From: Eledone cirrhosa
Taxonomy: Eukaryota
Assembly (NCBI GenBank): GCA_964016885.1
Contig: OZ024756.1
Span: 14,012,001 to 14,076,000, forward strand
Length of the DNA stretch: 64,000 bases
Direction: 5' to 3'
Under the pieces are notes generated by a model. The model searched no databases. It saw only the letters and a list, made by a program, of their open reading frames with translations, and was not told the DNA's origin. Within the stretch, counting starts at the first letter, position 1, and each line of letters starts with the position of its first letter. This document shows, in pieces, positions 10,865 to 63,341 of this stretch. A program made the position numbers and the translations under genes.

Positions 10865-13800
10865 CAGTTGTTATATACTGTCATCATTACAATGTCACAA
10901 TAACCACATTACACCTGTCCTATCTTCCACAGTTGTTATATACTGTCATCATTACAATGTCACAATAACCACATTACACCTGTCCTATCTTCCACAGTTG
11001 TTATATACTGTCATCATTACAATGTCACAATAACCACATTACACCTGTCCTACCTTTCACAGTTGTTATATACTGTCATCATTACAATGTCACAATAACC
11101 ACATTACACCTGTCCTATCTTCCACAGTTGTTATATACTGTCATCATTACAATGTCACAATAACCACATTACACCTGTCCTATCTTCCACAGTTGTTATA
11201 TACTGTCATCATTACAATGTCACAATAACCACATTACACCTGTCCTACCTTCCACAGTTGTTATATACTGTCATCATTACAATGTCACAATAACCACATT
11301 ACACCTGTCCTATCTTCCACAGTTGTTATATACTGTCATCATTACAATGTCACAATAACCACATTACACCTGTCCTATCTTCCACAGTTGTTATATACTG
11401 TCATCATTACAATGTCACAATAACCACATTACACCTGTCCTATCTTCCACAGTTGTTATATACTGTCATCATTACAATGTCACAATAACCACATTACACC
11501 TGTCCTATCTTCCACAGTTGTTATATACTGTCATCATTACAATGTCACAATAACCACATTACACCTGTCCTACCTTCCACAGTTGTTATATACTGTCATC
11601 ATTACAATGTCACAATAACCACATTACACCTGTCCTACCTTCCACAGTTGTTATATACTGTCATCATTACAATGTCACAATAACCACATTACACCTGTCC
11701 TATCTTCCACAGTTGTTATATACTGTCATCATTACAATGTCACAATAACCACATTACACCTGTCCTACCTTCCACAGTTGTTATATACTGTCATCATTAC
11801 AATGTCACAATAACCACATTACACCTGTCCTACCTTCCACAGTTGTTATATACTGTCATCATTACAATGTCACAATAACCACATTACACCTGTCTTACCT
11901 TCCACAGTTGTTATATACTGTCATCATTACAATGTCACAATAACCACATTACACCTGTCCTACCTTCCACAGTTGTTATATACTGTCATCATTACAATGT
12001 CACAATAACCACATTACACCTGTCCTACCTTCCACAGTTGTTATATACTGTCATCATTACAATGTCACAATAACCACATTACACCTGTCTTACCTTCCAC
12101 AGTTGTTATATACTGTCATCATTACAATGTCACAATAACCACATTACACCTGTCCTACCTTCCACAGTTGTTATATACTGTCATCATTACAATGTCACAA
12201 TAACCACATTACACCTGTCCTATCTTCCACAGTTGTTATATACTGTCATCATTACAATGTCACAATAACCACATTACACCTGTCTTACCTTCCACAGTTG
12301 TTATATACTGTCATCATTACAATGTCACAATAACCACATTACACCTGTCCTACCTTCCACAGTTGTTATATACTGTCATCATTACAATGTCACAATAACC
12401 ACATTACACCTGTCCTACCTTCCACAGTTGTTATATACTGTCATCATTACAATGTCACAATAACCACATTACACCTGTCCTACCTTCCACAGTTGTTATA
12501 TACTGTCATCATTACAATGTCACAATAACCACATTACACCTGTCCTATCTTCCACAGTTGTTATATACTGTCATCATTACAATGTCACAATAACCACATT
12601 ACACCTGTCCTACCTTTCACAGTTGTTATATACTGTCATCATTACAATGTCACAATAACCACATTACACCTGTCCTATCTTCCACAGTTGTTATATACTG
12701 TCATCATTACAATGTCACAATAACCACATTACACCTGTCCTATCTTCCACAGTTGTTATATACTGTCATCATTACAATGTCACAATAACCACATTACACC
12801 TGTCCTATCTTCCACAGTTGTTATATACTGTCATCATTACAATGTCACAATAACCACATTACACCTGTCCTATCTTCCACAGTTGTTATATACTGTCATC
12901 ATTACAATGTCACAATAACCACATTACACCTGTCCTACCTTCCACAGTTGTTATATACTGTCATCATTACAATGTCACAATAACCACATTACACCTGTCC
13001 TATCTTCCACAGTTGTTATATACTGTCATCATTACAATGTCACAATAACCACATTACACCTGTCCTATCTTCCACAGTTGTTATATACTGTCATCATTAC
13101 AATGTCACAATAACCACATTACACCTGTCCTATCTTCCACAGTTGTTATATACTGTCATCATTACAATTACACCTGTCCTATCTTCCACAGTTGTTATAT
13201 ACTGTCATCATTACAATTACACCTGTCCTATCTTCCACAGTTGTTATATACTGTCATCATTACAATGTCACAATAACCACATTACACCTGTCCTATCTTC
13301 CACAGTTGTTATATACTGTCATCATTACAATGTCACAATAACCACATTACACCTGTCCTATCTTCCACAGTTGTTATATACTGTCATCATTACAATGTCA
13401 CAATAACCACATTACACCTGTCCTATCTTCCACAGTTGTTATATACTGTCATCATTACAATGTCACAATAACCACATTACACCTGTCCTACCTTCCACAG
13501 TTGTTATATACTGTCATCATTACAATGTCACAATAACCACATTACACCTGTCCTATCTTCCACAGTTGTTATATACTGTCATCATTACAATGTCACAATA
13601 ACCACATTACACCTGTCCTACCTTCCACAGTTGTTATATACTGTCATCTTTACAATGTCACAATAACCACATTACACCTGTCCTATCTTCCACAGTTGTT
13701 ATATACTGTCATCATTACAATGTCACAATAACCACATTACACCTGTCCTACCTTCCACAGTTGTTATATACTGTCATCTTTACAATGTCACAATAACCAC

Positions 13801-14250
13801 ATTACACCTGTCCTACCTTCCACAGTTGTTATATACTGTCATCATTACAATGTCACAATAACCACATTACACCTGTCCTATCTTCCACAGTTGTTATATA
13901 CTGTCATCATTACAATGTCACAATAACCACATTACACCTGTCCTACCTTCCACAGTTGTTATATACTGTCATCATTACAATGTCACAATAACCACATTAC
14001 ACCTGTCCTATCTTCCACAGTTGTTATATACTGTCATCATTACAATGTCACAATAACCACATTACACCTGTCCTACCTTCCACAGTTGTTATATACTGTC
14101 ATCATTACAATGTCACAATAACCACATTACACCTGTCCTATCTTCCACAGTTGCTATATACTGTCATCATTACAATTACACCTGTCCTATCTTCCACGGT
14201 TGTTATATACTGTCATCATTACAATTACACCTGTCCTATCTTCCACAGTT
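10865..14250. repeat. 65-bp minisatellite (~52 copies; four 49-bp variants)
   Basis: unit cagttgttatatactgtcatcattacaatgtcacaataaccacattacacctgtcctatcttcca. Confidence 0.97.
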
Positions 14251-14369
14251 ACTGGATGCAATGAATCATGACAGTGGAATTCCACTAAAGTCCCTACAAG
14301 TAGATGGCGGTATGTCTGTCAATTCTTTACTTATGCAGTTACAGGCTGATCTCTTGGGAATCAGTGTTG
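14249..14369 (+). CDS. GK: glycerol kinase exon ([40 protein letters not shown])
   Basis: acceptor ccacag supplied by the last minisatellite unit; donor gtaagt; VDGG motif. Confidence 0.95.
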
Positions 14370-14499
14370 GTAAGTTTTCTTCAAAGGAAATATCCACAAC
14401 ATATATATTACTTCTTCAAAATGGCTAATTAAATACAGACATGCTCTCTTCCTCTTCTTACCCTCATCTATCTTTCTGTTTCTTCAATCTCTCTCTTTA

Positions 14500-14535
14500 T
14501 CTTCTGATGAAGGATTAACATCCGAAATATTAAGA
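14500..14535 (+). ncRNA. minimal hammerhead-like motif (PLE type)
   Basis: TCTT-CTGATGA-A-GGAT taac ATCC-GAAA-TATT-AAGA; same element family as 4008-4043 (shared downstream flank). Confidence 0.6.
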
Positions 14536-14648
14536 CTCTTTTCTTACTACAACAAGCATTAAACTAATATATATCATCATTGTACTATTTCATTCTCTTA
14601 TGTTGTTTTTCTTCAATCACTATATATATATATATATATGTATATGTA

Positions 14649-14679
<31 letters not shown>

Positions 14680-14789
14680 GTTATGTGTATATATATGTGT
14701 GTATATATTTGTATATGTATGTGTGTATATATATATATATATGTATATATATGTGTGTATATATATATATATATGTGTCAGGTCACCAG

Positions 14790-17073: not shown

Positions 17074-17217
17074 TAAGACCATCCATGCCAGAAACTACAG
17101 CTCTAGGAGCAGCTATGGCAGCGGGGTGTGCTGAAGAAATCAATGTTTGGAATATGGATCCTACCAAATATCCCAAGACTATTACAGACACCTTCTTACC
17201 ATCAATTTCAGCAACTG
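17074..17217 (+). CDS. GK: glycerol kinase exon (VRPSMPETTALGAAMAAGCAEEINVWNMDPTKYPKTITDTFLPSISAT)
   Basis: caacag / gtaaat; ETTALGAA motif. Confidence 0.95.
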
Positions 17218-17897: not shown

Positions 17898-17978
17898 AAC
17901 GTGATAAAAGGTTCCAGTGGTGGAAGCTGGCAGTTAGCCGTTCTCTCAACTGGAAACTGGATTCTCCAGATTTCAGTG
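17898..17978 (+). CDS. GK: glycerol kinase exon (ERDKRFQWWKLAVSRSLNWKLDSPDFS)
   Basis: tttcag / gtatgt; WKxAVxRSxxW C-terminal helix. Confidence 0.92.
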
Positions 17979-18939: not shown

Positions 18940-20090
18940 CTTCAGCTTCGGCTTGTTCCTGTGAGGGGTTGGGTCTTCTGTATTACTGCGTGACGCCAGA
19001 GGTCACGGTCGTGTGTCATTTCCCTTGAGAGGTGCAATTGGGTAAGGTCGGCCTTTATCACCTCATCCCAGGTCTTCTTTGGTTTCCCCACTCCGCGGCT
19101 TCCATCGACTTCTAGTACTCTGCCCCTTTATATGCAGCTGTCATCCTTCATACGCATCACATGTCCATACCAACGCAATCTCCTCACCTGCACACAGCAT
19201 TTGATTCCTTTTATGCTCAGTCTCTCTCTCAATTCGTTTATACTTTGCCGTTTGCGTTTATTACTATTACACATCCATCGGAGCATGCAAGGTTCGTTTC
19301 TTTCTAATCTGCGCAAGTTTTTGACAGACAGCGCCCAGGTTTCACTACCATGTAACAATGCTGTTCTGCCTTTCATTTTGAGAGAAAAGCTTTTGCAGCT
19401 AGCAGTGGCAGTAGCGCCCTGAACTTCTTCCATCCCGTTCTTACCCTAGTTCTTGTACTTTCCGAACACCCACCTCCGCTGCTAATTCGGTCACCTAGGT
19501 AGCAGAAGCTGTCTACTGTTTCTACAGAGTCCTCCCAGAGTTTGGTGGTACTTGTTTCCTGTGGCTGTTTGGTGCTTGCTGTCCCAGCACAGCTGCTACA
19601 TGTGAAGCCTACATTCTTAGTTAAGCTTCCTGAGATCCCACTACATCTCTTGTGTACCCATTGTTTGCATTTGGGGCAGAGGATGGAGTTCCTACCTACA
19701 CGTTTCCTACATACTGAGCAAGGCCATTTCCCTGAGGGGATCTGGGTTCTGTTTTCTCGTCTACTTAAAAGAACCTTAGTCTTTGTCAGGTTGACTTTGA
19801 GACCCTTTCTTTCTAGTCCCTGCTTCCATGTTTGGAATTTCTTCTCTAGTTCCACCATAGATTCAACTATAAGTGCGAGATCATCCACATATAGGAGTTC
19901 CCATGGGCATCCGGTCTTAAACTCCTCCGTTATTGCCTGCAAAACTATAATGAACAGGAAAGGCCTAAGAACTGAGCCCTGGTGGACACCGACCTGTATA
20001 CTAAATTCCTCGCTATAGTCATTGCTGACTGTTCCTCTATACATGGCTTGTACAGCTTTCACAAGCCATTCATCTACTCCTAATTTTCTA
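18940..20090 (-). mobile_element. RTE-clade LINE fragment (RT + C-terminal region), frameshifted
   Basis: GVHQGSVL..FLF, PWELLYVDDLAL, GLKVN..KTK, PHD-like Cxx[31 protein letters not shown]. Confidence 0.93.
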
Positions 20091-20408
20091 GAAATGTGTA
20101 TGTTTATATATATAGTGTGTGTATATATGTATGTTTATATATATAGTATGTGTATGTTTATATATATAGTGTGTGTATATGTGTATGCTTGTCAGTATGA
20201 ATGTCATATCAACACTGTTGAAGGCCTGTGGTGACAGTTGTTTATGTTCCCCATAATATAAAACAAATAAAAACAGAAATAAAAACAGAAAAAGGTGTGG
20301 ATTGACATCAGGCCAGAATATATAAAAAATAATATGTCAGAAACACTTATGAGGATGATGATGATTGTGTTTAATGTTGTACTTGTTGTTGCTGTGATGT
20401 TAATAGTA

Positions 20409-24569: not shown

Positions 24570-26050
24570 TTAACCCTTTAGCATTTAAACCGACCATATC
24601 CGGCCAGAATTCTCTCACTCTGTCTGTTCAAACTGGCTGTAACCAACCACTCATACTGATGTTAAGGTATTCTTCTAAAAAAGAATACCATCAAAATCTC
24701 ATAGATTTGATATTATGTGAGGTAAAGCCTTTACTGTGAAAATACAGTAGTAAATATTGAGTAATGTAAATGTTATGTGAGATATTATGTGAGGTAAAGC
24801 CTTTACTGTGAAAATACAGTAGTAAATATTGAGTAATGTAAATGTTATGTGAGATATTATGTGAGGTAAAGCGTTTACTGTGAAAATACAGTAGTAAATA
24901 TTGAGTAATGTAAATGCTATGTGAGATATTATGTGAGGTAAAGCCTTTACTGTGAAAATACAATAGTATATATAGAGTAATGTAAATGTTATGTGAGATA
25001 TTATGTGAGGTAAAGCCTTTACTGTGAAAATACAGTAGTAAATATAGAGTAATGTAAATGTTATGTGAGATATTATATGAGGTAAAGCCTTTACTGTGAA
25101 AATACAGTAGTAAATATTGAGTAATGTAAATGTTATGTGAGATATTATGTGAGGTAAAGCCTTTACTGTGAAAATACAGTAGTAAATATAGAGTAATGTA
25201 AATGTTATGTGAGATATTATATGAGGTAAAGCCTTTACTGTGAAAATACAGTAGTAAATATTGAGTAATGTAAATGCTATGTGAGATATTATGTGAGGTA
25301 AAGCCTTTACTGTGAAAATACAATAGTAAATATTGAGTAATGTAAATGTTATGTGAGATATTATGTGAGGTAAAGCCTTTACTGTGAAAATACAGTAGTA
25401 TATATTGAGTAATGTAAATGTTATGTGAGATATTATGTGAGGTAAAGCCTTTACTGTGAAAATACAATAGTATATATTGAGTAATGTAAATGTTATGTGA
25501 GATATTATGTGAGGTAAAGCCTTTACTGTGAAAATACAGTAGTATATATAGAGTAATGTAAATGTTATGTGAGGTATTATGTGAGGTAAAGCCTTTACTG
25601 TGAAAATACAATAGTATATATTGAGTAATGTAAATGTTGTGAGATATTATGTGAGGTAAAGCCTTTACTGTGAAAATACAGTAGTAAATATTGAGTAATG
25701 TAAATGTTATGTGAGATATTATGTGAGGTAAAGCCTTTACTGTGAAAATACAGTAGTAAATATTGAGTGAGGTAAAGCCTTTACTGTGAAAATACAATAG
25801 TAAATATTGAGTAATGTAAATGTTATGTGAGATATTATGTGAGGTAAAGCCTTTACTGTGAAAATACAATAGTAAATATTGAGTAATGTAAATGTTATGT
25901 GAGATATTATGTGAGGTAAAGCCTTTACTGTGAAAATACAATAGTAAATATTGAGTAATGTAAATGTTATGTGAGATATTATGTGAGGTAAAGCCTTTAC
26001 TGTGAAAATACAATGGTAAATATAGAGTAATGTAAATGCTAAAGGGTTAA
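24570..26050 (+). mobile_element. piggyBac-type (TTAA) MITE with internal 72-bp array (~18 units)
   Basis: TTAA-CCCTTTAGCATTTA...TAAATGCTAAAGGG-TTAA. Confidence 0.9.
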
Positions 26051-35793: not shown

Positions 35794-35894
35794 AATATGA
35801 TAAGCGTACATTATGGACGACATTACCCGGCGGTCTCTACATCTTCCTCACCTTTGGTATCTTACTAATGGCTGAACTACTTCATAAAAGATGA
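35794..35894 (+). CDS. GK: glycerol kinase terminal exon, hydrophobic tail anchor (EYDKRTLWTTLPGGLYIFLTFGILLMAELLHKR*)
   Basis: strong pyrimidine tract + cttgtag; phase matches the previous exon; resembles the hydrophobic C-terminus of vertebrate GK; TGA at 35892-35894. Confidence 0.8.
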
Positions 35895-36380: not shown

Positions 36381-36717
36381 CAATCTATCCTTCCTTTTGT
36401 TAAGTCAGTAGGCTCTAGTTTGAAGCAATTTAACTGCTATATCTAGCAACCAAAGAAGGGAGCCGCTGCAACCCATGATCGTTCAACCTGCTAGAAACTG
36501 TAGTTAAACCTCCCTCAAACCACACCCGATTACATCAGGTCAGATTTAATTGAGCAAACCTATGATGAAAATGGTTTTGTAACTATCGCAACATGTCCGG
36601 GCATTATATTCGGTATAAGATAAATTAAATGTATTGTACAAGAGAAATGGTTGCACTGGTATGGTCATGTGATGTGTAAGGAAATTTGGGGTTTCTGTTT
36701 GAAGTGAATGGTGCCTA

Positions 36718-39700
36718 TAGAAGAGGGAAAACTGAGATGACATAGAAGGAATAAAGAATTACTGGTACCTGTAGAAGAGGGAGAACTAAGACATAGAAGG
36801 AATAAAGAATTACTGGTACCTGTAGAAGAGGGACAACTAAGACATAGAAGGAATGGAGAATTACTGGTACCTGTAGAAGAGGGAGAACTAAGACATAGAA
36901 GGAATGGAGAATTACTGGTACCTGTAGAAGAGGGACAACTAAGACATAGAAGGAATAAAGAATTACTGGTACCTGTAGAAGAGGGAGAACTAAGACATAG
37001 AAGGAATAAAGAATTACTGGTACCTGTAGAAGAGGGACAACTAAGACATAGAAGGAATAAAGAATTACTGGTACCTGTAGAAGAGGGACAACTAAGACAT
37101 AGAAGGAATGGAGAATTACTGGTACCTGTAGAAGAGGGAGAACTAAGACATAGAAGGAATAAAGAATTACTGATACCTGTAGAAGAGGGACAACTAAGAC
37201 ATAGAAGGAATAAAGAATTACTGGTACCTGTAGAAGAGGGACAACTAAGACATAGAAGGAATGGAGAATTACTGGTACCTGTAGAAGAGGGAGAACTAAG
37301 ACATAGAAGGAATGGAGAATTACTGGTACCTGTAGAAGAGGGACAACTAAGACATAGAAGGAATGGAGAATTACTGGTACCTGTAGAAGAGGGACAACTA
37401 AGACATAGAAGGAATGGAGAATTACTGGTACCTGTAGAAGAGGGACAACTAAGACATAGAAGGAATGGAGAATTACTGGTACCTGTAGAAGAGGGACAAC
37501 TAAGACATAGAAGGAATGGAGAATTACTGGTACCTGTAGAAGAGGGACAACTAAGACATAGAAGGAATGGAGAATTACTGGTACCTGTAGAAGAGGGAGA
37601 ACTAAGACATAGAAGGAATGGAGAATTACTGGTACCTGTAGAAGGGGGAGAACTAAGACATAGAAGGAATGGAGAATTACTGGTACCTGTAGAAGGGGGA
37701 GAACTAAGACATAGAAGGAATGGAGAATTACTGGTACCTGTAGAAGGGGGAGAACTAAGACATAGAAGGAATGGAGAATTACTGGTACCTGTAGAAGGGG
37801 GAGAACTAAGACATAGAAGGAATGGAGAATTACTGGTACCTGTAGAAGGGGGAGAACTAAGACATAGAAGGAATGGAGAATTACTGGTACCTGTAGAAGG
37901 GGGAGAACTAAGACATAGAAGGAATGGAGAATTACTGGTACCTGTAGAAGGGGGAGAACTAAGACATAGAAGGGGGAGAACTAAGACATAGAAGGAATGG
38001 AGAATTACTGGTACCTGTAGAAGGGGGAGAACTAAGACATAGAAGGAATGGAGAATTACTGGTACCTGTAGAAGGGGGAGAACTAAGACATAGAAGGAAT
38101 GGAGAATTACTGGTACCTGTAGAAGGGGGAGAACTAAGACATAGAAGGAATGGAGAATTACTGGTACCTGTAGAAGGGGGAGAACTAAGACATAGAAGGA
38201 ATGGAGAATTACTGGTACCTGTAGAAGGGGGAGAACTAAGACATAGAAGGAATGGAGAATTACTGGTACCTGTAGAAGGGGGAGAACTAAGACATAGAAG
38301 GAATGGAGAATTACTGGTACCTGTAGAAGGGGGAGAACTAAGACATAGAAGGAATGGAGAATTACTGGTACCTGTAGAAGGGGGAGAACTAAGACATAGA
38401 AGGAATAAAGAATTACTGGTACCTGTAGAAGAGGGAGAACTAAGACATAGAAGGAATGGAGAATTACTGGTACCTGTAGAAGAGGGACAACTAAGACATA
38501 GAAGGAATAAAGAATTACTGGTACCTGTAGAAGAGGGACAACTAAGACATAGAAGGAATAAAGAATTACTGGTACCTGTAGAAGGGGGAGAACTAAGACA
38601 TAGAAGGAATAAAGAATTACTGGTACCTGTAGAAGAGGGACAACTAAGACATAGAAGGAATAAAGAATTACTGGTACCTGTAGAAGAGGGAGAACTAAGA
38701 CATAGAAGGAATAAAGAATTACTGGTACCTGTAGAAGAGGGAGAACTAAGACATAGAAGGAATAAAGAATTACTGGTACCTGTAGAAGAGGGAGAACTAA
38801 GACATAGAAGGAATGGAGAATTACTGGTACCTGTAGAAGAGGGACAACTAAGACATAGAAGGAATAAAGAATTACTGGTACCTGTAGAAGAGGGACAACT
38901 AAGACATAGAAGGAATAAAGAATTACTGGTACCTGTAGAAGAGGGACAACTAAGACATAGAAGGAATAAAGAATTACTGGTACCTGTAGAAGGGGGAGAA
39001 CTAAGACATAGAAGGAATAAAGAATTACTGGTACCTGTAGAAGGGGGAGAACTAAGACATAGAAGGAATAAAGAATTACTGGTACCTGTAGAAGGGGGAG
39101 AACTAAGACATAGAAGGAATAAAGAATTACTGGTACCTGTAGAAGAGGGACAACTAAGACATAGAAGGAATAAAGAATTACTGGTACCTGTAGAAGGGGG
39201 AGAACTAAGACATAGAAGGAATAAAGAATTACTGGTACCTGTAGAAGGGGGAGAACTAAGACATAGAAGGAATAAAGAATTACTGGTACCTGTAGAAGAG
39301 GGACAACTAAGACATAGAAGGAATAAAGAATTACTGGTACCTGTAGAAGGGGGACAACTAAGACATAGAAGGAATGGAGAATTACTGGTACCTGTAGAAG
39401 AGGGAGAACTAAGACATAGAAGGAATGGAGAATTACTGGTACCTGTAAAAGAGGGACAACTGAGATGACATAGAAGGAATGGAGAATTACTGGTACCTGT
39501 AGAAGGGGGAGAACTAAGACATAGAAGGAATGGAGAATTACTGGTACCTGTAGAAGGGGGAGAACTAAGACATAGAAGGAATGGAGAATTACTGGTACCT
39601 GTAGAAGAGGGACAACTAAGACATAGAAGGAATGGAGAATTACTGGTACCTGTAGAAGAGGGAGAACTAAGACATAGAAGGAATGGAGAATTACTGGTAC

Positions 39701-42700
39701 CTGTAGAAGAGGGAGAACTAAGCCATAGAAGGAATGGAGAATTACTGGTACCTGTAGAAGGGGGAGAACTAAGACATAGAAGGAATAAAGAATTGCTGGT
39801 ACCTGTAGAAGGGGGAGAACTAAGACATAGAAGGAATGGAGAATTACTGGTACCTGTAGAAGGGGGAGAACTAAGACATAGAAGGAATGGAGAATTACTG
39901 GTACCTGTAGAAGGGGGAGAACTAAGACATAGAAGGAATGGAGAATTACTGGTACCTGTAGAAGAGGGACAACTAAGACATAGAAGGAATGGAGAATTAC
40001 TGGTACCTGTAGAAGAGGGACAACTAAGACATAGAAGGAATGGAGAATTACTGGTACCTGTAGAAGGGGGAGAACTAAGACATAGAAGGAATGGAGAATT
40101 ACTGGTACCTGTAGAAGAGGGAGAACTAAGTCATAGAAGGAATGGAGAATTACTGGTACCTGTAGAAGAGGGAGAACTAAGACATAGAAGGAATGGAGAA
40201 TTACTGGTACTTGTAGAAGGGGGAGAACTTAGACATAGAAGGAATGGAGAATTACTGGTACCTGTAGAAGGGGGAGAACTTAGACATAGAAGGAATGGAG
40301 AATTACTGGTACCTGTAGAAGAGGGACAACTAAGACATAGAAGGAATGGAGAATTACTGGTACCTGTAGAAGGGGGACAACTAAGACATAGAAGGAATGG
40401 AGAATTACTGGTACCTGTAGAAGAGGGAGAACTAAGACATAGAAGGAATGGAGAATTACTGGTACCTGTAGAAGAGGGACAACTAAGACAGAAGGAATGG
40501 AGAATTACTGGTACCTGTAGAAGGGGGAGAACTTAGACATAGAAGGAATGGAGAATTACTGGTACCTGTAGAAGGGGGAGAACTTAGACATAGAAGGAAT
40601 GGAGAATTACTGGTACCTGTAGAAGAGGGAGAACTAAGACATAGAAGGAATGGAGAATTACTGGTACCTGTAGAAGAGGGACAACTAAGACATAGAAGGA
40701 ATGGAGAATTACTGGTACCTGTAGAAGAGGGAGAACTAAGACATAGAAGGAATGGAGAATTACTGGTACCTGTAGAAGGGGGAGAACTTAGACATAGAAG
40801 GAATGGAGAATTACTGGTACCTGTAGAAGAGGGAGAACTAAGACATAGAAGGAATGGAGAATTACTGGTACCTGTAGAAGAGGGAGAACTAAGACATAGA
40901 AGGAATGGAGAATTACTGGTACCTGTAGAAGGGGGAGAACTAAGACATAGAAGGAATGGAGAATTACTGGTACCTGTAGAAGAGGGACAACTAAGACAGA
41001 AGGAATGGAGAATTACTGGTACCTGTAGAAGAGGGACAACTAAGACAGAAGGAATGGAGAATTACTGGTACCTGTAGAAGGGGGACAACTAAGACATAGA
41101 AGGAATGGAGAATTACTGGTACCTGTAGAAGGGGGACAACTAAGACATAGAAGGAATGGAGAATTACTGGTACCTGTAGAAGAGGGACAACTAAAACATA
41201 GAGGGAATGGAGAATTACTGGTACCTGTAGAAGGGGGAGAAGTAAGTCATAGAAGGAATGGAGAATTACTGGTACCTGTAGAAGAGGGACAACTAAGACA
41301 TACAAGGAATGGAGAATTACTGGTACCTGTAGAAGAGGGACAACTAAGACATAGAAGGAATGGAGAATTACTGGTACCTGTAGAAGAGGGACAACTAAGA
41401 CATAGAAGGAATGGAGAATTACTGGTACCTGTAGAAGAGGGAGAACTAAGACATAGAAGGAATGGAGAATTACTGGTACCTGTAGAAGGGGGACAACTAA
41501 GACATAGAAGGAATGGAGAATTACTGGTACCTGTAGAAGAGGGAAAACTAAGACATAGAAGGAATGGAGAATTACTGGTACCCGTAGAAGGGGGAGAACT
41601 AAGACATAGAAGGAATGGAGAATTACTGGTACCTGTAGAAGAGGGACAACTAAGACATAGAAGGAATGGAGAATTACTGGTACCTGTAGAAGAGGGAGAA
41701 CTAAGACATAGAAGGAATAAAGAATTACTGGTACCTGTAGAAGAGGGACAACTAAGACATAGAAGGAATAAAGAATTACTGGTACCTGTAGAAGAGGGAC
41801 AACTAAGACATAGAAGGAATAAAGAATTACTGGTACCTGTAGAAGGGGGAGAACTAAGACATAGAAGGAATAAAGAATTACTGGTACCTGTAGAAGGGGG
41901 AGAACTAAGACATAGAAGGAATAAAGAATTACTGGTACCTGTAGAAGAGGGACAACTAAGACATAGAAGGAATAAAGAATTACTGGTACCTGTAGAAGGG
42001 GGAGAACTAAGACATAGAAGGAATAAAGAATTACTGGTACCTGTAGAAGGGGGAGAACTAAGACATAGAAGGAATAAAGAATTACTGGTACCTGTAGAAG
42101 GGGGAGAACTAAGACATAGAAGGAATAAAGAATTACTGGTACCTGTAGAAGAGGGACAACTAAGACATAGAAGGAATAAAGAATTACTGGTACCTGTAGA
42201 AGAGGGACAACTAAGACATAGAAGGAATAAAGAATTACTGGTACCTGTAGAAGGGGGAGAACTAAGACATAGAAGGAATAAAGAATTACTGGTACCTGTA
42301 GAAGGGGGAGAACTAAGACATAGAAGGAATAAAGAATTACTGGTACCTGTAGAAGGGGGACAACTAAGACATAGAAGGAATAAAGAATTACTGGTACCTG
42401 TAGAAGGGGGACAACTAAGACATAGAAGGAATGGAGAATTACTGGTACCTGTAGAAGAGGGAGAACTAAGACATAGAAGGAATGGAGAATTACTGGTACC
42501 TGTAAAAGAGGGACAACTGAGATGACATAGAAGGAATGGAGAATTACTGGTACCTGTAGAAGGGGGAGAACTAAGACATAGAAGGAATGGAGAATTACTG
42601 GTACCTGTAGAAGGGGGAGAACTAAGACATAGAAGGAATGGAGAATTACTGGTACCTGTAGAAGAGGGACAACTAAGACATAGAAGGAATGGAGAATTAC

Positions 42701-44867
42701 TGGTACCTGTAGAAGAGGGAGAACTAAGACATAGAAGGAATGGAGAATTACTGGTACCTGTAGAAGGGGGAGAACTAAGACATAGAAGGAATAAAGAATT
42801 GCTGGTACCTGTAGAAGGGGGAGAACTAAGACATAGAAGGAATGGAGAATTACTGGTACCTGTAGAAGGGGGAGAACTAAGACATAGAAGGAATGGAGAA
42901 TTACTGGTACCTGTAGAAGGGGGAGAACTAAGACATAGAAGGAATGGAGAATTACTGGTACCTGTAGAAGAGGGACAACTAAGACATAGAAGGAATGGAG
43001 AATTACTGGTACCTGTAGAAGAGGGACAACTAAGACATAGAAGGAATGGAGAATTACTGGTACCTGTAGAAGGGGGAGAACTAAGACATAGAAGGAATGG
43101 AGAATTACTGGTACCTGTAGAAGAGGGAGAACTAAGTCATAGAAGGAATGGAGAATTACTGGTACCTGTAGAAGAGGGAGAACTAAGACATAGAAGGAAT
43201 GGAGAATTACTGGTACTTGTAGAAGGGGGAGAACTTAGACATAGAAGGAATGGAGAATTACTGGTACCTGTAGAAGGGGGAGAACTTAGACATAGAAGGA
43301 ATGGAGAATTACTGGTACCTGTAGAAGAGGGACAACTAAGACATAGAAGGAATGGAGAATTACTGGTACCTGTAGAAGGGGGACAACTAAGACATAGAAG
43401 GAATGGAGAATTACTGGTACCTGTAGAAGAGGGAGAACTAAGACATAGAAGGAATGGAGAATTACTGGTACCTGTAGAAGAGGGACAACTAAGACAGAAG
43501 GAATGGAGAATTACTGGTACCTGTAGAAGGGGGAGAACTTAGACATAGAAGGAATGGAGAATTACTGGTACCTGTAGAAGGGGGAGAACTTAGACATAGA
43601 AGGAATGGAGAATTACTGGTACCTGTAGAAGAGGGAGAACTAAGACATAGAAGGAATGGAGAATTACTGGTACCTGTAGAAGAGGGACAACTAAGACATA
43701 GAAGGAATGGAGAATTACTGGTACCTGTAGAAGAGGGAGAACTAAGACATAGAAGGAATGGAGAATTACTTGTACCTGTAGAAGGGGGAGAACTTAGACA
43801 TAGAAGGAATGGAGAATTACTGGTACCTGTAGAAGAGGGAGAACTAAGACATAGAAGGAATGGAGAATTACTGGTACCTGTAGAAGAGGGAGAACTAAGA
43901 CATAGAAGGAATGGAGAATTACTGGTACCTGTAGAAGGGGGAGAACTAAGACATAGAAGGAATGGAGAATTACTGGTACCTGTAGAAGAGGGACAACTAA
44001 GACAGAAGGAATGGAGAATTACTGGTACCTGTAGAAGAGGGACAACTAAGACAGAAGGAATGGAGAATTACTGGTACCTGTAGAAGGGGGACAACTAAGA
44101 CATAGAAGGAATGGAGAATTACTGGTACCTGTAGAAGGGGGACAACTAAGACATAGAAGGAATGGAGAATTACTGGTACCTGTAGAAGAGGGACAACTAA
44201 AACATAGAAGGAATGGAGAATTACTGGTACCTGTAGAAGGGGGAGAAGTAAGTCATAGAAGGAATGGAGAATTACTGGTACCTGTAGAAGAGGGACAACT
44301 AAGACATACAAGGAATGGAGAATTACTGGTACCTGTAGAAGAGGGACAACTAAGACATAGAAGGAATGGAGAATTACTGGTACCTGTAGAAGAGGGACAA
44401 CTAAGACATAGAAGGAATGGAGAATTACTGGTACCTGTAGAAGAGGGACAACTAAGACATAGAAGGAATGGAGAATTACTGGTACCTGTAAAAGAGGGAG
44501 AACTAAGACATAGAAGGAATGGAGAATTACTGGTACCTGTAGAAGGGGGACAACTAAGACATAGAAGGAATGGAGAATTACTGGTACCTGTAGAAGAGGG
44601 ACAACTAAGACATAGAAGGAATGGAGAATTACTGGTACCCGTAGAAGGGGGAGAACTAAGACATAGAAGGAATGGAGAATTACTGGTACCTGTAGAAGAG
44701 GGACAACTAAGACATAGAAGGAATGGAGAATTACTGGTACCTGTAGAAGAGGGAGAACTAAGACATAGAAGGAATGGAGAATTACTGGTACCTGTAGAAG
44801 AGGGAGAACTAAGACATAGAAGGAATGGAGAATTACTGGTACCTGTAGAAGAGGGACAACTAAGACA
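36718..44867. repeat. 51-bp satellite (~160 copies) with ~3-kb higher-order duplication
   Basis: unit acatagaaggaatggagaattactggtacctgtagaagagggagaactaag. Confidence 0.97.
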
Positions 44868-45348
44868 TCTAAACTATAATAAAGAAAGGAGTGCGATTGC
44901 GTACGGTTTATAATTTTTTATCCCATTAGTAAAATAAGTTGGATTACTTTGAATAAATAATGAATGAATATTACATAATTTATCTACTAAATTTCGTGGC
45001 TTTTGATTAAATATATTTTATTGTTTATTTAAAGATTCACTTCTTTAAAATTTTCAAATGTCAACATTTCCGGTTAGCGATCGCTTAAATAAATATTCAT
45101 ATATTTCTGTCACTAATTTTCTCCTAATGCAGTTTATATATACTATCGTTTTTTTTTTATGTATCATGGATTACGTTACTGATTACATAAGACAGTGTAA
45201 CGCAGTCTTCGTTCAATTTCTGTGTATATTGTCAATTACGATTTTATTTGATGTATCATATCTACATGTATATATATTTGTGTATAATATCAATATACAC
45301 ACCACACATGCTAGCAGAAAACCATCCGAAGGGTGGTTTTTCTGCTAG
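44868..45348 (+). mobile_element. non-autonomous Helitron
   Basis: 5' TC, 3' CTAG preceded by a hairpin; inserted between A and T of the satellite unit aagacA|Tagaagg with no TSD. Confidence 0.9.
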
Positions 45349-46084
45349 TAGAAGGAATGAAGAATTACTGGTACCTGGAGAAGAGAACTAAGAAGACCTG
45401 GTAGGAAGTTGTGAAGAATTTCCTAAAAAAACCTGCCCTCATGAAAGAGATGATGCAGGACTGAGGTGACTGGCAATACCATAATACAAAATACCTACTC
45501 TCTTGTACAAACACTGTGACACTAAAAGTATATGTAGTGAGTGACTGGAGGCTAGAGTGCTGGCGATTGAATGAAGAAAATATAGTGTTTGGAGGATCCA
45601 TCAGAACATGTAACCACCTCTCTAAGGCTGGTACCATGATAAAATGCACTCAATACACCCTGTAAAGTGGTAATGGTTCCATGATAAAATGCACTCAATT
45701 ACACCATGTAAAGTGGTAGTGGTAATGCCATAAAAAAACGCTCTCAATACACCCTGAAAGGTAGTTGGCATTGAAAAGGCATCCAGTCGTAGAAACCATG
45801 CCAAATATGGATCTATAAGTAACATGGGTCAGTCAGACCTCTGCCTCCCCCCACCCCCAAGAAACTGCTGGTCATTTGCCAGTATTAGAAACAGTTATTA
45901 ACCAAACATCATCGTCATTTAACATCCATTTTCCACGATTGCATAGGTTAATATCTAATTATAAATAATTATGTCTTGAAGGAAAATAAAACAATTAATT
46001 AAAGACAAATATGTTAATTAATGCAGATGCAATTAATAATTATGTTAACAACAATGGTGGTGGATCGGCAGAACTAGTAAAGCA

Positions 46085-59875: not shown

Positions 59876-61030
59876 TGGTGGGACGGGAGTGTATTTTGGT
59901 TAAGAGGTGCCTACTGACTGTAGGTTTCGCTTTGCACTTAGGCAAGGCGGGTCTTCTGTATTACTGTGTAGCGCCAAAGATCTCGGTCCAGTGACATTGT
60001 CTTGGAGAGGTGTAAGTGTGTGAGGTCGGAATTTATGAAGTCGTCCCAGGTTTTTCTGGGTCTGCCTACTCCGTGGCTACCGTCTATTTTGATCGCCCTG
60101 CACTTTTTTATACAGCTGTCGTCTTTCATGCGCGTCTTTCATGACCATACCAACGTAATCTTCTCTCAAGTAAACAGCTTCTGATCCCTCTTATTCCTAA
60201 TTTCTCACTTAGTTCATTTATGCTTTGCCGTTCACGTATATTACTATTACACATCCAACGGAGCATGCAAGCTTCGTTCCTCTCTAGTCTGCGTATATCC
60301 TCTGCACACAATCCCCAGGTCTCACTGCCATGTAACATTGCTGTTCGTATGCAGGCATCATACAGCTTGCCTTTCATTTTTAGAGAGAAACATTTAGCGG
60401 CCAATAGTGGTATAAGCTCTCTGAACTTTTTCCATCCCGTTCTGACTCTAGCTACTGTACTTTCAGAGCACCCTCCACCACTGCTGATTTTGTCACCCAG
60501 GTAACGGAAGGTGTCCACTATTTCTATAGAACCATCTGTGCAATGGAATGAGCTAGTATTCTGTGGGCACTTGCTGCTACTTATTGCACCTGAGCACCGG
60601 CCACATATAAAATCTATATTCTTAGTTAGCTTACCTGTGATCCCACTACATCTTTTATGCACCCATACTTTGCATTTGGGACATAAAATGGAGTTTCTGC
60701 CTACTCCTTTCCTACACTGAGCATGGCCATTTCCCAGATTGGACCAGTGCCCTATTTTCCTTCCTATATACTAGAACTTTAGTCTTAGATAGGTTAATTT
60801 TAAGGCCTTTTGATTCTAGGCCATGCTTCCATGTTTGGAATTTCTTCTCTAGTTCAGCCATTGATTCAGCTATGAGCGTTAGATCATCAGCGTATAGGAG
60901 TTCCCATGGGCCGCCGGTCTTGAACTCCTCTGTTATAGCCTGAAGGGCAATAATAAATAGGAAGGGGCTAAGGACGGAGCCCTGATGAACACCAACTTTT
61001 ACGCTAAACTCTTCACTATATTCGATCAAT
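59876..61030 (-). mobile_element. RTE LINE fragment in PPOX intron 7
   Basis: GVHQGSVLSPFLF, ELLYADDL, FRYLG, WYGH, GRPRKTW; frameshifted. Confidence 0.93.
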
Positions 61031-61313: not shown

Positions 61314-63341
61314 TTGACCCTTTAATGTTCAAACCGGCCAAAACCGGTCAGAATTCTCTACCTCTTCCTGTTGAAACTGGCTGTAACTGGTCACTCAAAC
61401 TGATGTTAAGGTATTGTTCTCAAAATAAATACTTTCAAAATCTCATAGATTCGAAATTATGTGAGATAATTATGTGAGGTAAAGCCTTTTCCATGAAAAT
61501 ATAATTGTTTCTACTTTAGGCACAAGGCCAGCAATTACCCAGTGCATTACTGGTACTTTATTTTATCGACCCCGTAAGGATGAAAGGTAAAGTCAACCTC
61601 GGCGGGATTTGAACTCAGATCATAAAGGGACGTAACTATGCTGGAAAGCATGGCGTCAAACCCTCTACCGATACTGCCAATCCACCTTACCATGAAAATA
61701 TAATAGTATATATAGAGTAATGTGAATGTTATGTGAGATATTATGTGAGGTAAAGTCTTTACTGTGAAAATACAATAGTATATATAGAGTAATGTAAATG
61801 TTATGTGAGATATTATGTGAGGTAAAGTCTTTACTGTGAAAATACAATAGTATATATAGAGTAATGTAAATGTTATGTGAGATAATTATGTGAGGTAAAG
61901 CCTTTTCCATGAAAATACAATAGTATATATAGAGTAATGTAAATGTTATGTGAGATAATTATGTGAGGTAAAGCCTTTACCATGAAAATACAATAGTATA
62001 TATAGAGTAATGTAAATGTTATGTGAGATAATTATGTGAGGTAAAGCTTTTACCATGAAAATACAATAGTATATATAGAGTAATGTAAATGTTATGTGAG
62101 ATAATTATGTGAGGTAAAGCCTTTACCATGAAAATACAATAGTATATATAGAGTAATGTAAATGTTATGTGAGATAATTATGTGAGGTAAAGCCTTTTCC
62201 ATGAAAATACAATAGTATATATAGAGTAATGTAAATGTTATGTGAGATAATTATGTGAGGTAAAGCCTTTACCATGAAAATACAATAGTATATATAGAGT
62301 AATGTAAATGTTATGTGAGATAATTATGTGAGGTAAAGCCTTTACCATGAAAATACAATAGTATATATAGAGTAATGTAAATGTTATGTGAGATAATTAT
62401 GTGAGGTAAAGCCTTTACCATGAAAATACAATAGTATATATAGAGTAATGTAAATGTTATGTGAGATAATTATGTGAGGTAAAGCCTTTTCCATGAAAAT
62501 ACAATAGTATATATAGAGTAATGTAAATGTTATGTGAGATAATTATGTGAGGTAAAGCCTTTACCATGAAAATACAATAGTATATATAGAGTAATGTAAA
62601 TGTTATGTGAGATAATTATGTGAGGTAAAGCCTTTACCATGAAAATACAATAGTATATATAGAGTAATGTAAATGTTATGTGAGATAATTATGTGAGGTA
62701 AAGCCTTTACCATGAAAATATAATAGTATATATAGAGTAATGTGAATATTATGTGATATATTATGTGAGGTAAAGCCTTTACCATGAAAATATAATAGTA
62801 TATATAGAGTAATGTAAATGTTATGTGAGATAATTATGTGAGGTAAAGCCTTTACCATGAAAATACAATAGTATATATAGAGTAATGTAAATGTTATGTG
62901 AGATAATTATGTGAGGTAAAGCCTTTACCATGAAAATACAATAGTATATATAGAGTAATGTAAATGTTATGTGAGATAATTATGTGAGGTAAAGCCTTTA
63001 CCATGAAAATATAATAGTATATATAGAGTAATGTGAATATTATGTGATATATTATGTGAGGTAAAGCCTTTACCATGAAAATATAATAGTATATATAGAG
63101 TAATGTAAATGTTATGTGAGATAATTATGTGAGGTAAAGCCTTTACCATGAAAATACAATAGTATATATAGAGTAATGTAAATGTTATGTGAGATAATTA
63201 TGTGAGGTAAAGCCTTTACCATGAAAATATAATAGTATATATAGAGTAATGTGAATATTATGTGATATATTATGTGAGGTAAAGCCTTTACCATGAAAAT
63301 ATAATTGTATATATAGAGTAATGTGAATGCTAAAGGGTTAA
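61314..63341 (+). mobile_element. piggyBac-type MITE with 72/73-bp array (~23 units) and a SINE insertion
   Basis: same head as 7283; right end AATGCTAAAGGG-TTAA. Confidence 0.88.
61501..61686 (-). mobile_element. SINE family B inserted into a TTAA MITE
   Basis: flanked by TSD ccatgaaaatataat. Confidence 0.88.

Follow-up and report, generated by a model that had tools for sequence, protein, structure and literature searches.

We report that the 3' end of one intron of the glycerol kinase (GK) gene of Eledone cirrhosa is copied 53-fold in tandem, and that a contig of spliced length uses only the last AG of this array. Taking the evidence together, we consider it probable that the last copy is picked by exon definition, and that the A>G change which removes the AG of the penultimate unit (unit 52) is a substitution that arose by chance, this edge unit being poorly homogenised. 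On this best explanation, the array is a 'mirage' minisatellite that is tolerated in a genome rich in repeats, and not a regulatory device.

The acceptor array and its setting

The window (the whole 64-kb stretch of DNA that was analysed) contains the 3' part of the GK gene, of which 11 exons were placed between 282 and 35894 by tblastn with Octopus bimaculoides GK and P0002. The 40 residues encoded by the exon at 14249 are similar to solved glycerol kinases (best E 4.7e-11), and the closest named relative of the exon product is the O. bimaculoides GK, with 98% identity. The exons on either side of the array intron meet at an in-frame junction (RE/LL), in agreement with an earlier note on this DNA, made from the letters alone, which had paired the donor at 10175 with the acceptor of the exon at 14249. 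In the downstream intron, a dispersed high-copy repeat occupies 14440-14600, where the summed depth of sequencing run X1 reaches up to ~34,000.

The array spans 10865-14250 at the 3' end of the intron (~3.4 kb), and its unit takes in the intron end plus the first 2 exon bases. When cut at the unit start it falls into 53 units over 10868-14248, 49 of them of 65 bp and four (units 36, 37, 52, and 53) of 49 bp (Table 1). Each unit holds a single AG, at its end, with the exception of unit 52, which ends in GG; units 1-51 are thus intact full decoy acceptors, and an extra leading CAG at 10865-67 has no pyrimidine tract. The acceptor motif is exact in 47/53 units and occurs nowhere else in the 64-kb window, the remaining six being five units with one C>T and the GG unit itself. 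Unit 53, like the 49-bp form generally, is without the ATAAC branch-like word found in the 65-bp unit.

Table 1. Positions of the GK exons, the array intron and the parts of the acceptor array
Feature	Positions	Strand	Remarks
Upstream GK exon	10090..10174	+	...AICFQTRE; donor GAG/GTTTGT at 10175
GK intron, 4074 nt	10175..14248	+	contains CA-rich simple repeat 10309-10860 and the tandem array
Left CAGTT word, 5 bp	10865..10869	+	identical word closes the array at 14246-14250
Units 1-51: 49 x 65 bp, 2 x 49 bp (13143-13240)	10868..14150	+	all end in pyrimidine tract + CAG
Example of predicted 5-bp hairpin	14146..14164	+	decoy CAG pairs with start of next unit; real acceptor excluded
Unit 52, 49 bp	14151..14199	+	holds both private substitutions of the array: T>C 14154, A>G 14198 (CAG to CGG)
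Unit 53, 49 bp	14200..14248	+	source of real pyrimidine tract + AG (14247-48)
GK exon, 121 nt	14249..14369	+	ends ...LGISV; strong donor TTG/GTAAGT at 14370

The earlier note had described an acceptor amplified about 52 times, with the last unit serving as the real one; the count is 53, and unit 53 does supply the AG. Its observation of a single AG per unit holds, as does that of a penultimate unit whose AG has become GG at 14198, which widens the AG-free zone from about 49 to about 98 nt: the nearest intact AG 5' of the real acceptor (14247-48) lies at 14149, 98 nt off. The description is accurate, but it overlooks two points. The last two units were correctly called shortened 49-bp variants, but the interior units 36 and 37 have this length too and keep their AG, which means that the short form is found away from the array end as well. 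Unit 52, moreover, carries a second private change, T>C at 14154.

In the window, 12 minisatellite arrays (period >40 bp) occupy 31% of the sequence, and a crude estimate puts at 0.14 the chance that any of the 7 arrays within the GK span falls on one of its 11 acceptors, so that no special cause is needed for an array over a GK acceptor. The first duplication was likely seeded when two CAGTT words slipped against each other, and the array would then have grown through unequal exchange.

Several other repeats of the window resemble splice signals or lie close to them. A 51-bp array of ~158 units (36709-44868), located beyond the GK stop codon, reads on the minus strand as a pyrimidine tract followed by CAG/GT, as a recursive site would; the array includes large block duplications of ~3 kb, its AG is altered in 4/156 units, and a search for an exon adjoining it found none. 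A lone diverged copy of its unit is present ~500 bp outside the array, at 45360-45400 (minus strand), beside a short inverted repeat. The arrays at 6078-6366, 7422-7846, 24709-26038, and 61687-63329 (43, 72, 72, and 73 bp, respectively) belong to one common unit family, three of the four contain a donor-like GAG/GTAAAG word, and the one at 7422-7846 stops ~60 bp before a GK acceptor. Short tandem repeats at 1-268 and 9296-9374 stop just 5' of the GK acceptors 282 and 9375, with the AG uncopied. Retroelement fragments are located at 19376-20134 and 60129-60770 (minus strand); they comprise a reverse transcriptase with a PHD finger behind it, and part of another PHD finger.

Use of the last AG and how it may be chosen

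Five listed sequencing runs, from two studies, contain part of this DNA; none of the listed holders is an RNA run, which carries no information on expression. Of eight runs, four (X1, X4, X5, and X6) were aligned. A contig of 1648 nt from run X4 aligns solely at 14247-14369 and enters the exon exactly at 14249; the match includes 2 bases before the exon because the upstream exon likewise ends in AG. The 225 nt that follow the match equal in length the two GK exons that come next (144 and 81 nt). The contig therefore has the shape of a spliced-length GK mRNA in which the last AG is used, X4 not being recorded as RNA. As contigs lose rare forms, it speaks for the presence of last-AG use and does not gauge rare use of decoys; X4 depth is nil at 14120-14238, and no X4 contig enters via a decoy. 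The same contig terminates exactly where the exon 17898-17978 does. The O. bimaculoides model P0001 continues beyond the exon 17074-17217, and P0002 and P0003 run to the last exon (35794-35894). Together, the contig end and the contrast of P0001 with P0002/P0003 hint at alternative GK C-termini. Two scans of contigs from metagenomes, one with the acceptor-exon junction and one with the repeat unit, gave 0 matches.

Entry through any other site would truncate the product. A premature stop follows all 53 tested positions (52 upstream AGs and 14198 if restored), at a distance of 12 codons for 51 of the upstream AGs, 38 for 14149, and 24 for a restored 14198. Use of the two nearest upstream positions would frameshift GK, as had been claimed, by +49 and +98 nt. 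The proposal that the locus is a natural test of acceptor choice is supported by these stops and by the spliced-length contig that takes the last AG.

We suggest that the spliceosome likely takes unit 53 as the acceptor closest to the strong donor of the exon. The GT words of the unit agree with the U1 consensus at 3-6/11 positions, while the real GK donors match at 7-8/11 in 8/9 cases and at 4/11 in one. With such weak GT words, the nearest donor open to any decoy is the real one at 14370, so that the closest acceptor would be favoured under exon definition. The decoys would stay mostly silent because the array interior holds no good donor, and rare decoy products would go to nonsense-mediated decay. 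General principles of splicing and the donor-side repeat cases discussed below make this choice of the last AG likely.

Each decoy AG is also predicted to sit in a hairpin of 5 bp, which may contribute to the silence. In folding, the unpaired probability of the CAG is 0.00-0.02 in the 51 full decoys vs 0.30 at the real site. The CAG is equally hidden in 16/400 shuffled units, yet also in 63/248 sampled background CAGs, and for the ten remaining real GK acceptors the value lies between 0.01 and 0.67, and is <0.1 in 5/10. The whole array folds no better than its shuffles (z 0.33 to 1.70). We regard hairpin masking of decoy AGs, a product of folding models, as a lead and not a result.

The real acceptor may itself be weak, judging from a missing YTNAY word: none lies within 60 nt of the 14249 acceptor (nor anywhere in units 52-53), unlike at 10/10 other GK acceptors. 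Unit 53 has its branch-like words between -22 and -44, on the 3' side of 14198, and the intact decoy at 98 nt (14149) retains a better one, ATAAC. A distant branch point was considered for this acceptor and rejected, given an AG-free zone of 98 nt and the absence of YTNAY from units 52-53.

It has to be asked whether the array could instead be a functional splicing device, acting as a recursive (ratchet) ladder or as a regulated poison-acceptor switch for GK. In principle, 51 intact acceptors that all lead to stops could tune GK output by copy number. Recursive splicing (ratchet) points consist of an AG immediately followed by GT. The array is like them in presenting acceptor-like sites inside an intron and unlike them in that GT directly follows the AG in 0/53 cases, which rules out ordinary recursive sites; the idea of recursive splicing put forward in the earlier note finds no support on this count or in the poor U1 matches of the unit. 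Pseudo-exon formation was likewise considered and rejected. With a unit that lacks a good donor, no decoy-entering X4 contig, an intron of a mere 4.1 kb and 0 Rfam matches in 10000-14700, we judge a device of either type to be highly improbable.

The lost AG of unit 52

Private changes in the GK array are confined to its margin: the interior units have 0 in 3153 bp, and the four edge units have 2 in 228 bp, each of which falls in unit 52. A similar tendency is seen in 9 other arrays (16 in 2062 bp of edge units vs 21 in 12237 bp), and in the four of these arrays that have at least 18 units the excess comes down to 2 changes (2 in 973 bp at the edge vs 9 in 11216 bp). Given two private changes in unit 52, the chance that its AG is hit is 0.08; by the edge rates of the other arrays the chance is 0.004-0.015. 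These values are suggestive of selection. The loss of the AG is, however, one event that was noticed post hoc.

The earlier note had proposed that selection may have removed the nearest decoy. The array and the role of exon definition would then be as described above, and the A>G in unit 52 would have been favoured for silencing the most competitive decoy and for lending the branch-like words and pyrimidine tract of unit 52 to the real AG. We see this as possible, though on the unlikely side. What stands of the claim is that the sole AG loss among the 52 upstream units adjoins the real unit, at a neutral chance of 0.004-0.08, and that every decoy product is truncated. In the human CBS and 6-16 genes, the pseudo-sites that are used are the two closest to the real one, according to the accessible part of PMC1557585, and the nearest decoy is therefore the one on which selection would act; the lack of a YTNAY word at this acceptor alone points the same way. 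If the pieces of run X5, labelled as another organism (organism B), are at least 35 nt long, one of them crosses 14198 with no G>A listed, which would place the G in organism B as well. These points have to be set against a second private change in the same unit (T>C 14154), an array that grew to 53 units, and a 98-nt decoy left intact with the better branch-like word. AG-free zones of <49 nt are found at 7/10 other, functioning GK acceptors (range across these acceptors 19-148 nt). Human AGs described as risky in the available portion of PMC9284458 lie between branch point and acceptor, whereas 14198 is upstream of the unit 53 candidates. CAG>CGG also occurs in 2/156 units of the 51-bp array, where no adjoining exon was found, and the enrichment of private changes in edge units has a counterpart in the boundary effect of amphioxus mirages (PMC3087553, in the text available). 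The X5 depth, finally, can also be explained without any piece over 14198, provided that pieces as short as 25-30 nt are counted. A selected knock-out is plausible, with one base as its footing.

It is also conceivable, if unlikely, that G14198 is private to one haplotype or results from faulty assembly, and that other chromosomes carry an intact AG beside the last unit. Run X1, possibly the source sample, contains 0.80 of the words and yields a contig aligned over 14199-14581 with 0 differences and 3 letters unaligned. These letters most likely fall at 14196-14198, their side being inferred from other alignment rows. A k=31 contig would begin at just this point if a lone 49-bp unit came after a unit that ends in AG, and such a start would mean an allele without the knock-out. 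However, units 36-37 provide a parallel A-type route. Simplification of an assembler graph, or bubble removal, can merge such parallel paths, and in this manner the haplotype of the window itself could yield the observed path. X5, too, may carry the G. Contig models at k=31 (X1) and depth fitting (X5) fit either base at 14198. The contigs of both runs end in the last unit, with no piece spanning the array, and the RAD run X6 has no depth at 14120-14442.

X5 shows 33 differences in 383 aligned nt, with 8 in the 121 nt of the exon and no listed difference over the final 27 bases of the intron; its exon contig ends at 14222, within unit 53. A synonymous T>C at 14332 in the GK exon is shared by organism B and X4. 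X5 depth is 43-136 over 14171-14238 vs 16.3 on unique sequence, so organism B likely has the GK repeat unit in several copies, and the array has then likely been tolerated for a long time. G>A is seen at 3 places in X5, all away from 14198; the absence of a listed G>A there could mean that the G is old and was kept. A further version, which we find rather doubtful, is a domesticated mirage: selection would have fixed the knock-out of the sole competing decoy before the split from organism B, and the unit hairpin would hide the other 51 AGs. We continue to regard the tolerated array with a chance substitution in its edge unit as the probable account.

Relation to known splice-site repeats and significance

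We conclude that the GK array is a mirage-type minisatellite. Four of the five features of this class are found in it, the fifth being copy-number instability between haplotypes. The unit spans the intron-exon boundary (the array ends at 14250 with the real AG and 2 exon bases); many but not all units carry the splice signal (AG in 51/52 upstream units); splicing is regular, in so far as the X4 contig attests the presence of spliced length with entry at 14249; and the interior is homogenised with the boundary units excluded, as the counts of private changes given above indicate. Mirages are described in amphioxus for Adh3, the globins BflGb6 and BflGb9, troponin C, and PGBD5 (PMC3087553, PMC3902484, in the parts available), where, likewise, tandem copies of an intron 3' end plus exon start are seen and many units retain the AG. 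Normal splicing is kept there, and boundary units are left out of homogenisation, in the sections of PMC3087553 at hand. The GK array differs from these cases, as far as the same texts describe them, in having 53 near-identical units vs 3-6 in BflGb6, a unit that takes in no more than 2 exon bases, a mollusc host, and a single AG loss that adjoins the real unit.

Human splice-site VNTRs are known from F7 intron 7 (37 bp), CBS intron 13, interferon-inducible 6-16, lamin B2, and PDGF intron 4 (PMC1557585, accessible part). In these, as in the GK intron, a minisatellite reiterates identical splice sites and the exon-proximal one is used, sometimes with the next two. Theirs is a 5' donor, however, so that the GK array is a mirror image of the F7/CBS type: the reiterated site is an acceptor, for which the branch point and the scanning for AG come into play as well. 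Exons with distant branch points, as the available part of PMC1431707 presents them, are similar in having an AG-free stretch of ~100 nt before the acceptor. They are defined by an AG-free zone of at least 100 nt with a branch point and tract at its 5' end, whereas the 98 nt of the GK array fall inside the 19-148 nt range of the gene's own acceptors and have no consensus branch point at the 5' end.

The kind of repeat is thus already known, and the GK array adds a large, pure acceptor-side example to it: a clean case in which 51 spare acceptors are passed over for the last. Because its sites vary only in position and downstream context, the array is a useful substrate for the study of acceptor choice, including donor distance, hairpin masking, and branch-point use. 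If G14198 is fixed and needed, it would represent selection repairing splicing within a fast-turning repeat; no report of selective splicing repair in such repeats was found in titles and abstract starts, in a search largely without subscription journals. Should the array prove to be a domesticated mirage, it would be the first case of compensatory evolution within a splice-site minisatellite, and would show, as a natural gauge, the upstream distance over which an identical acceptor can compete.
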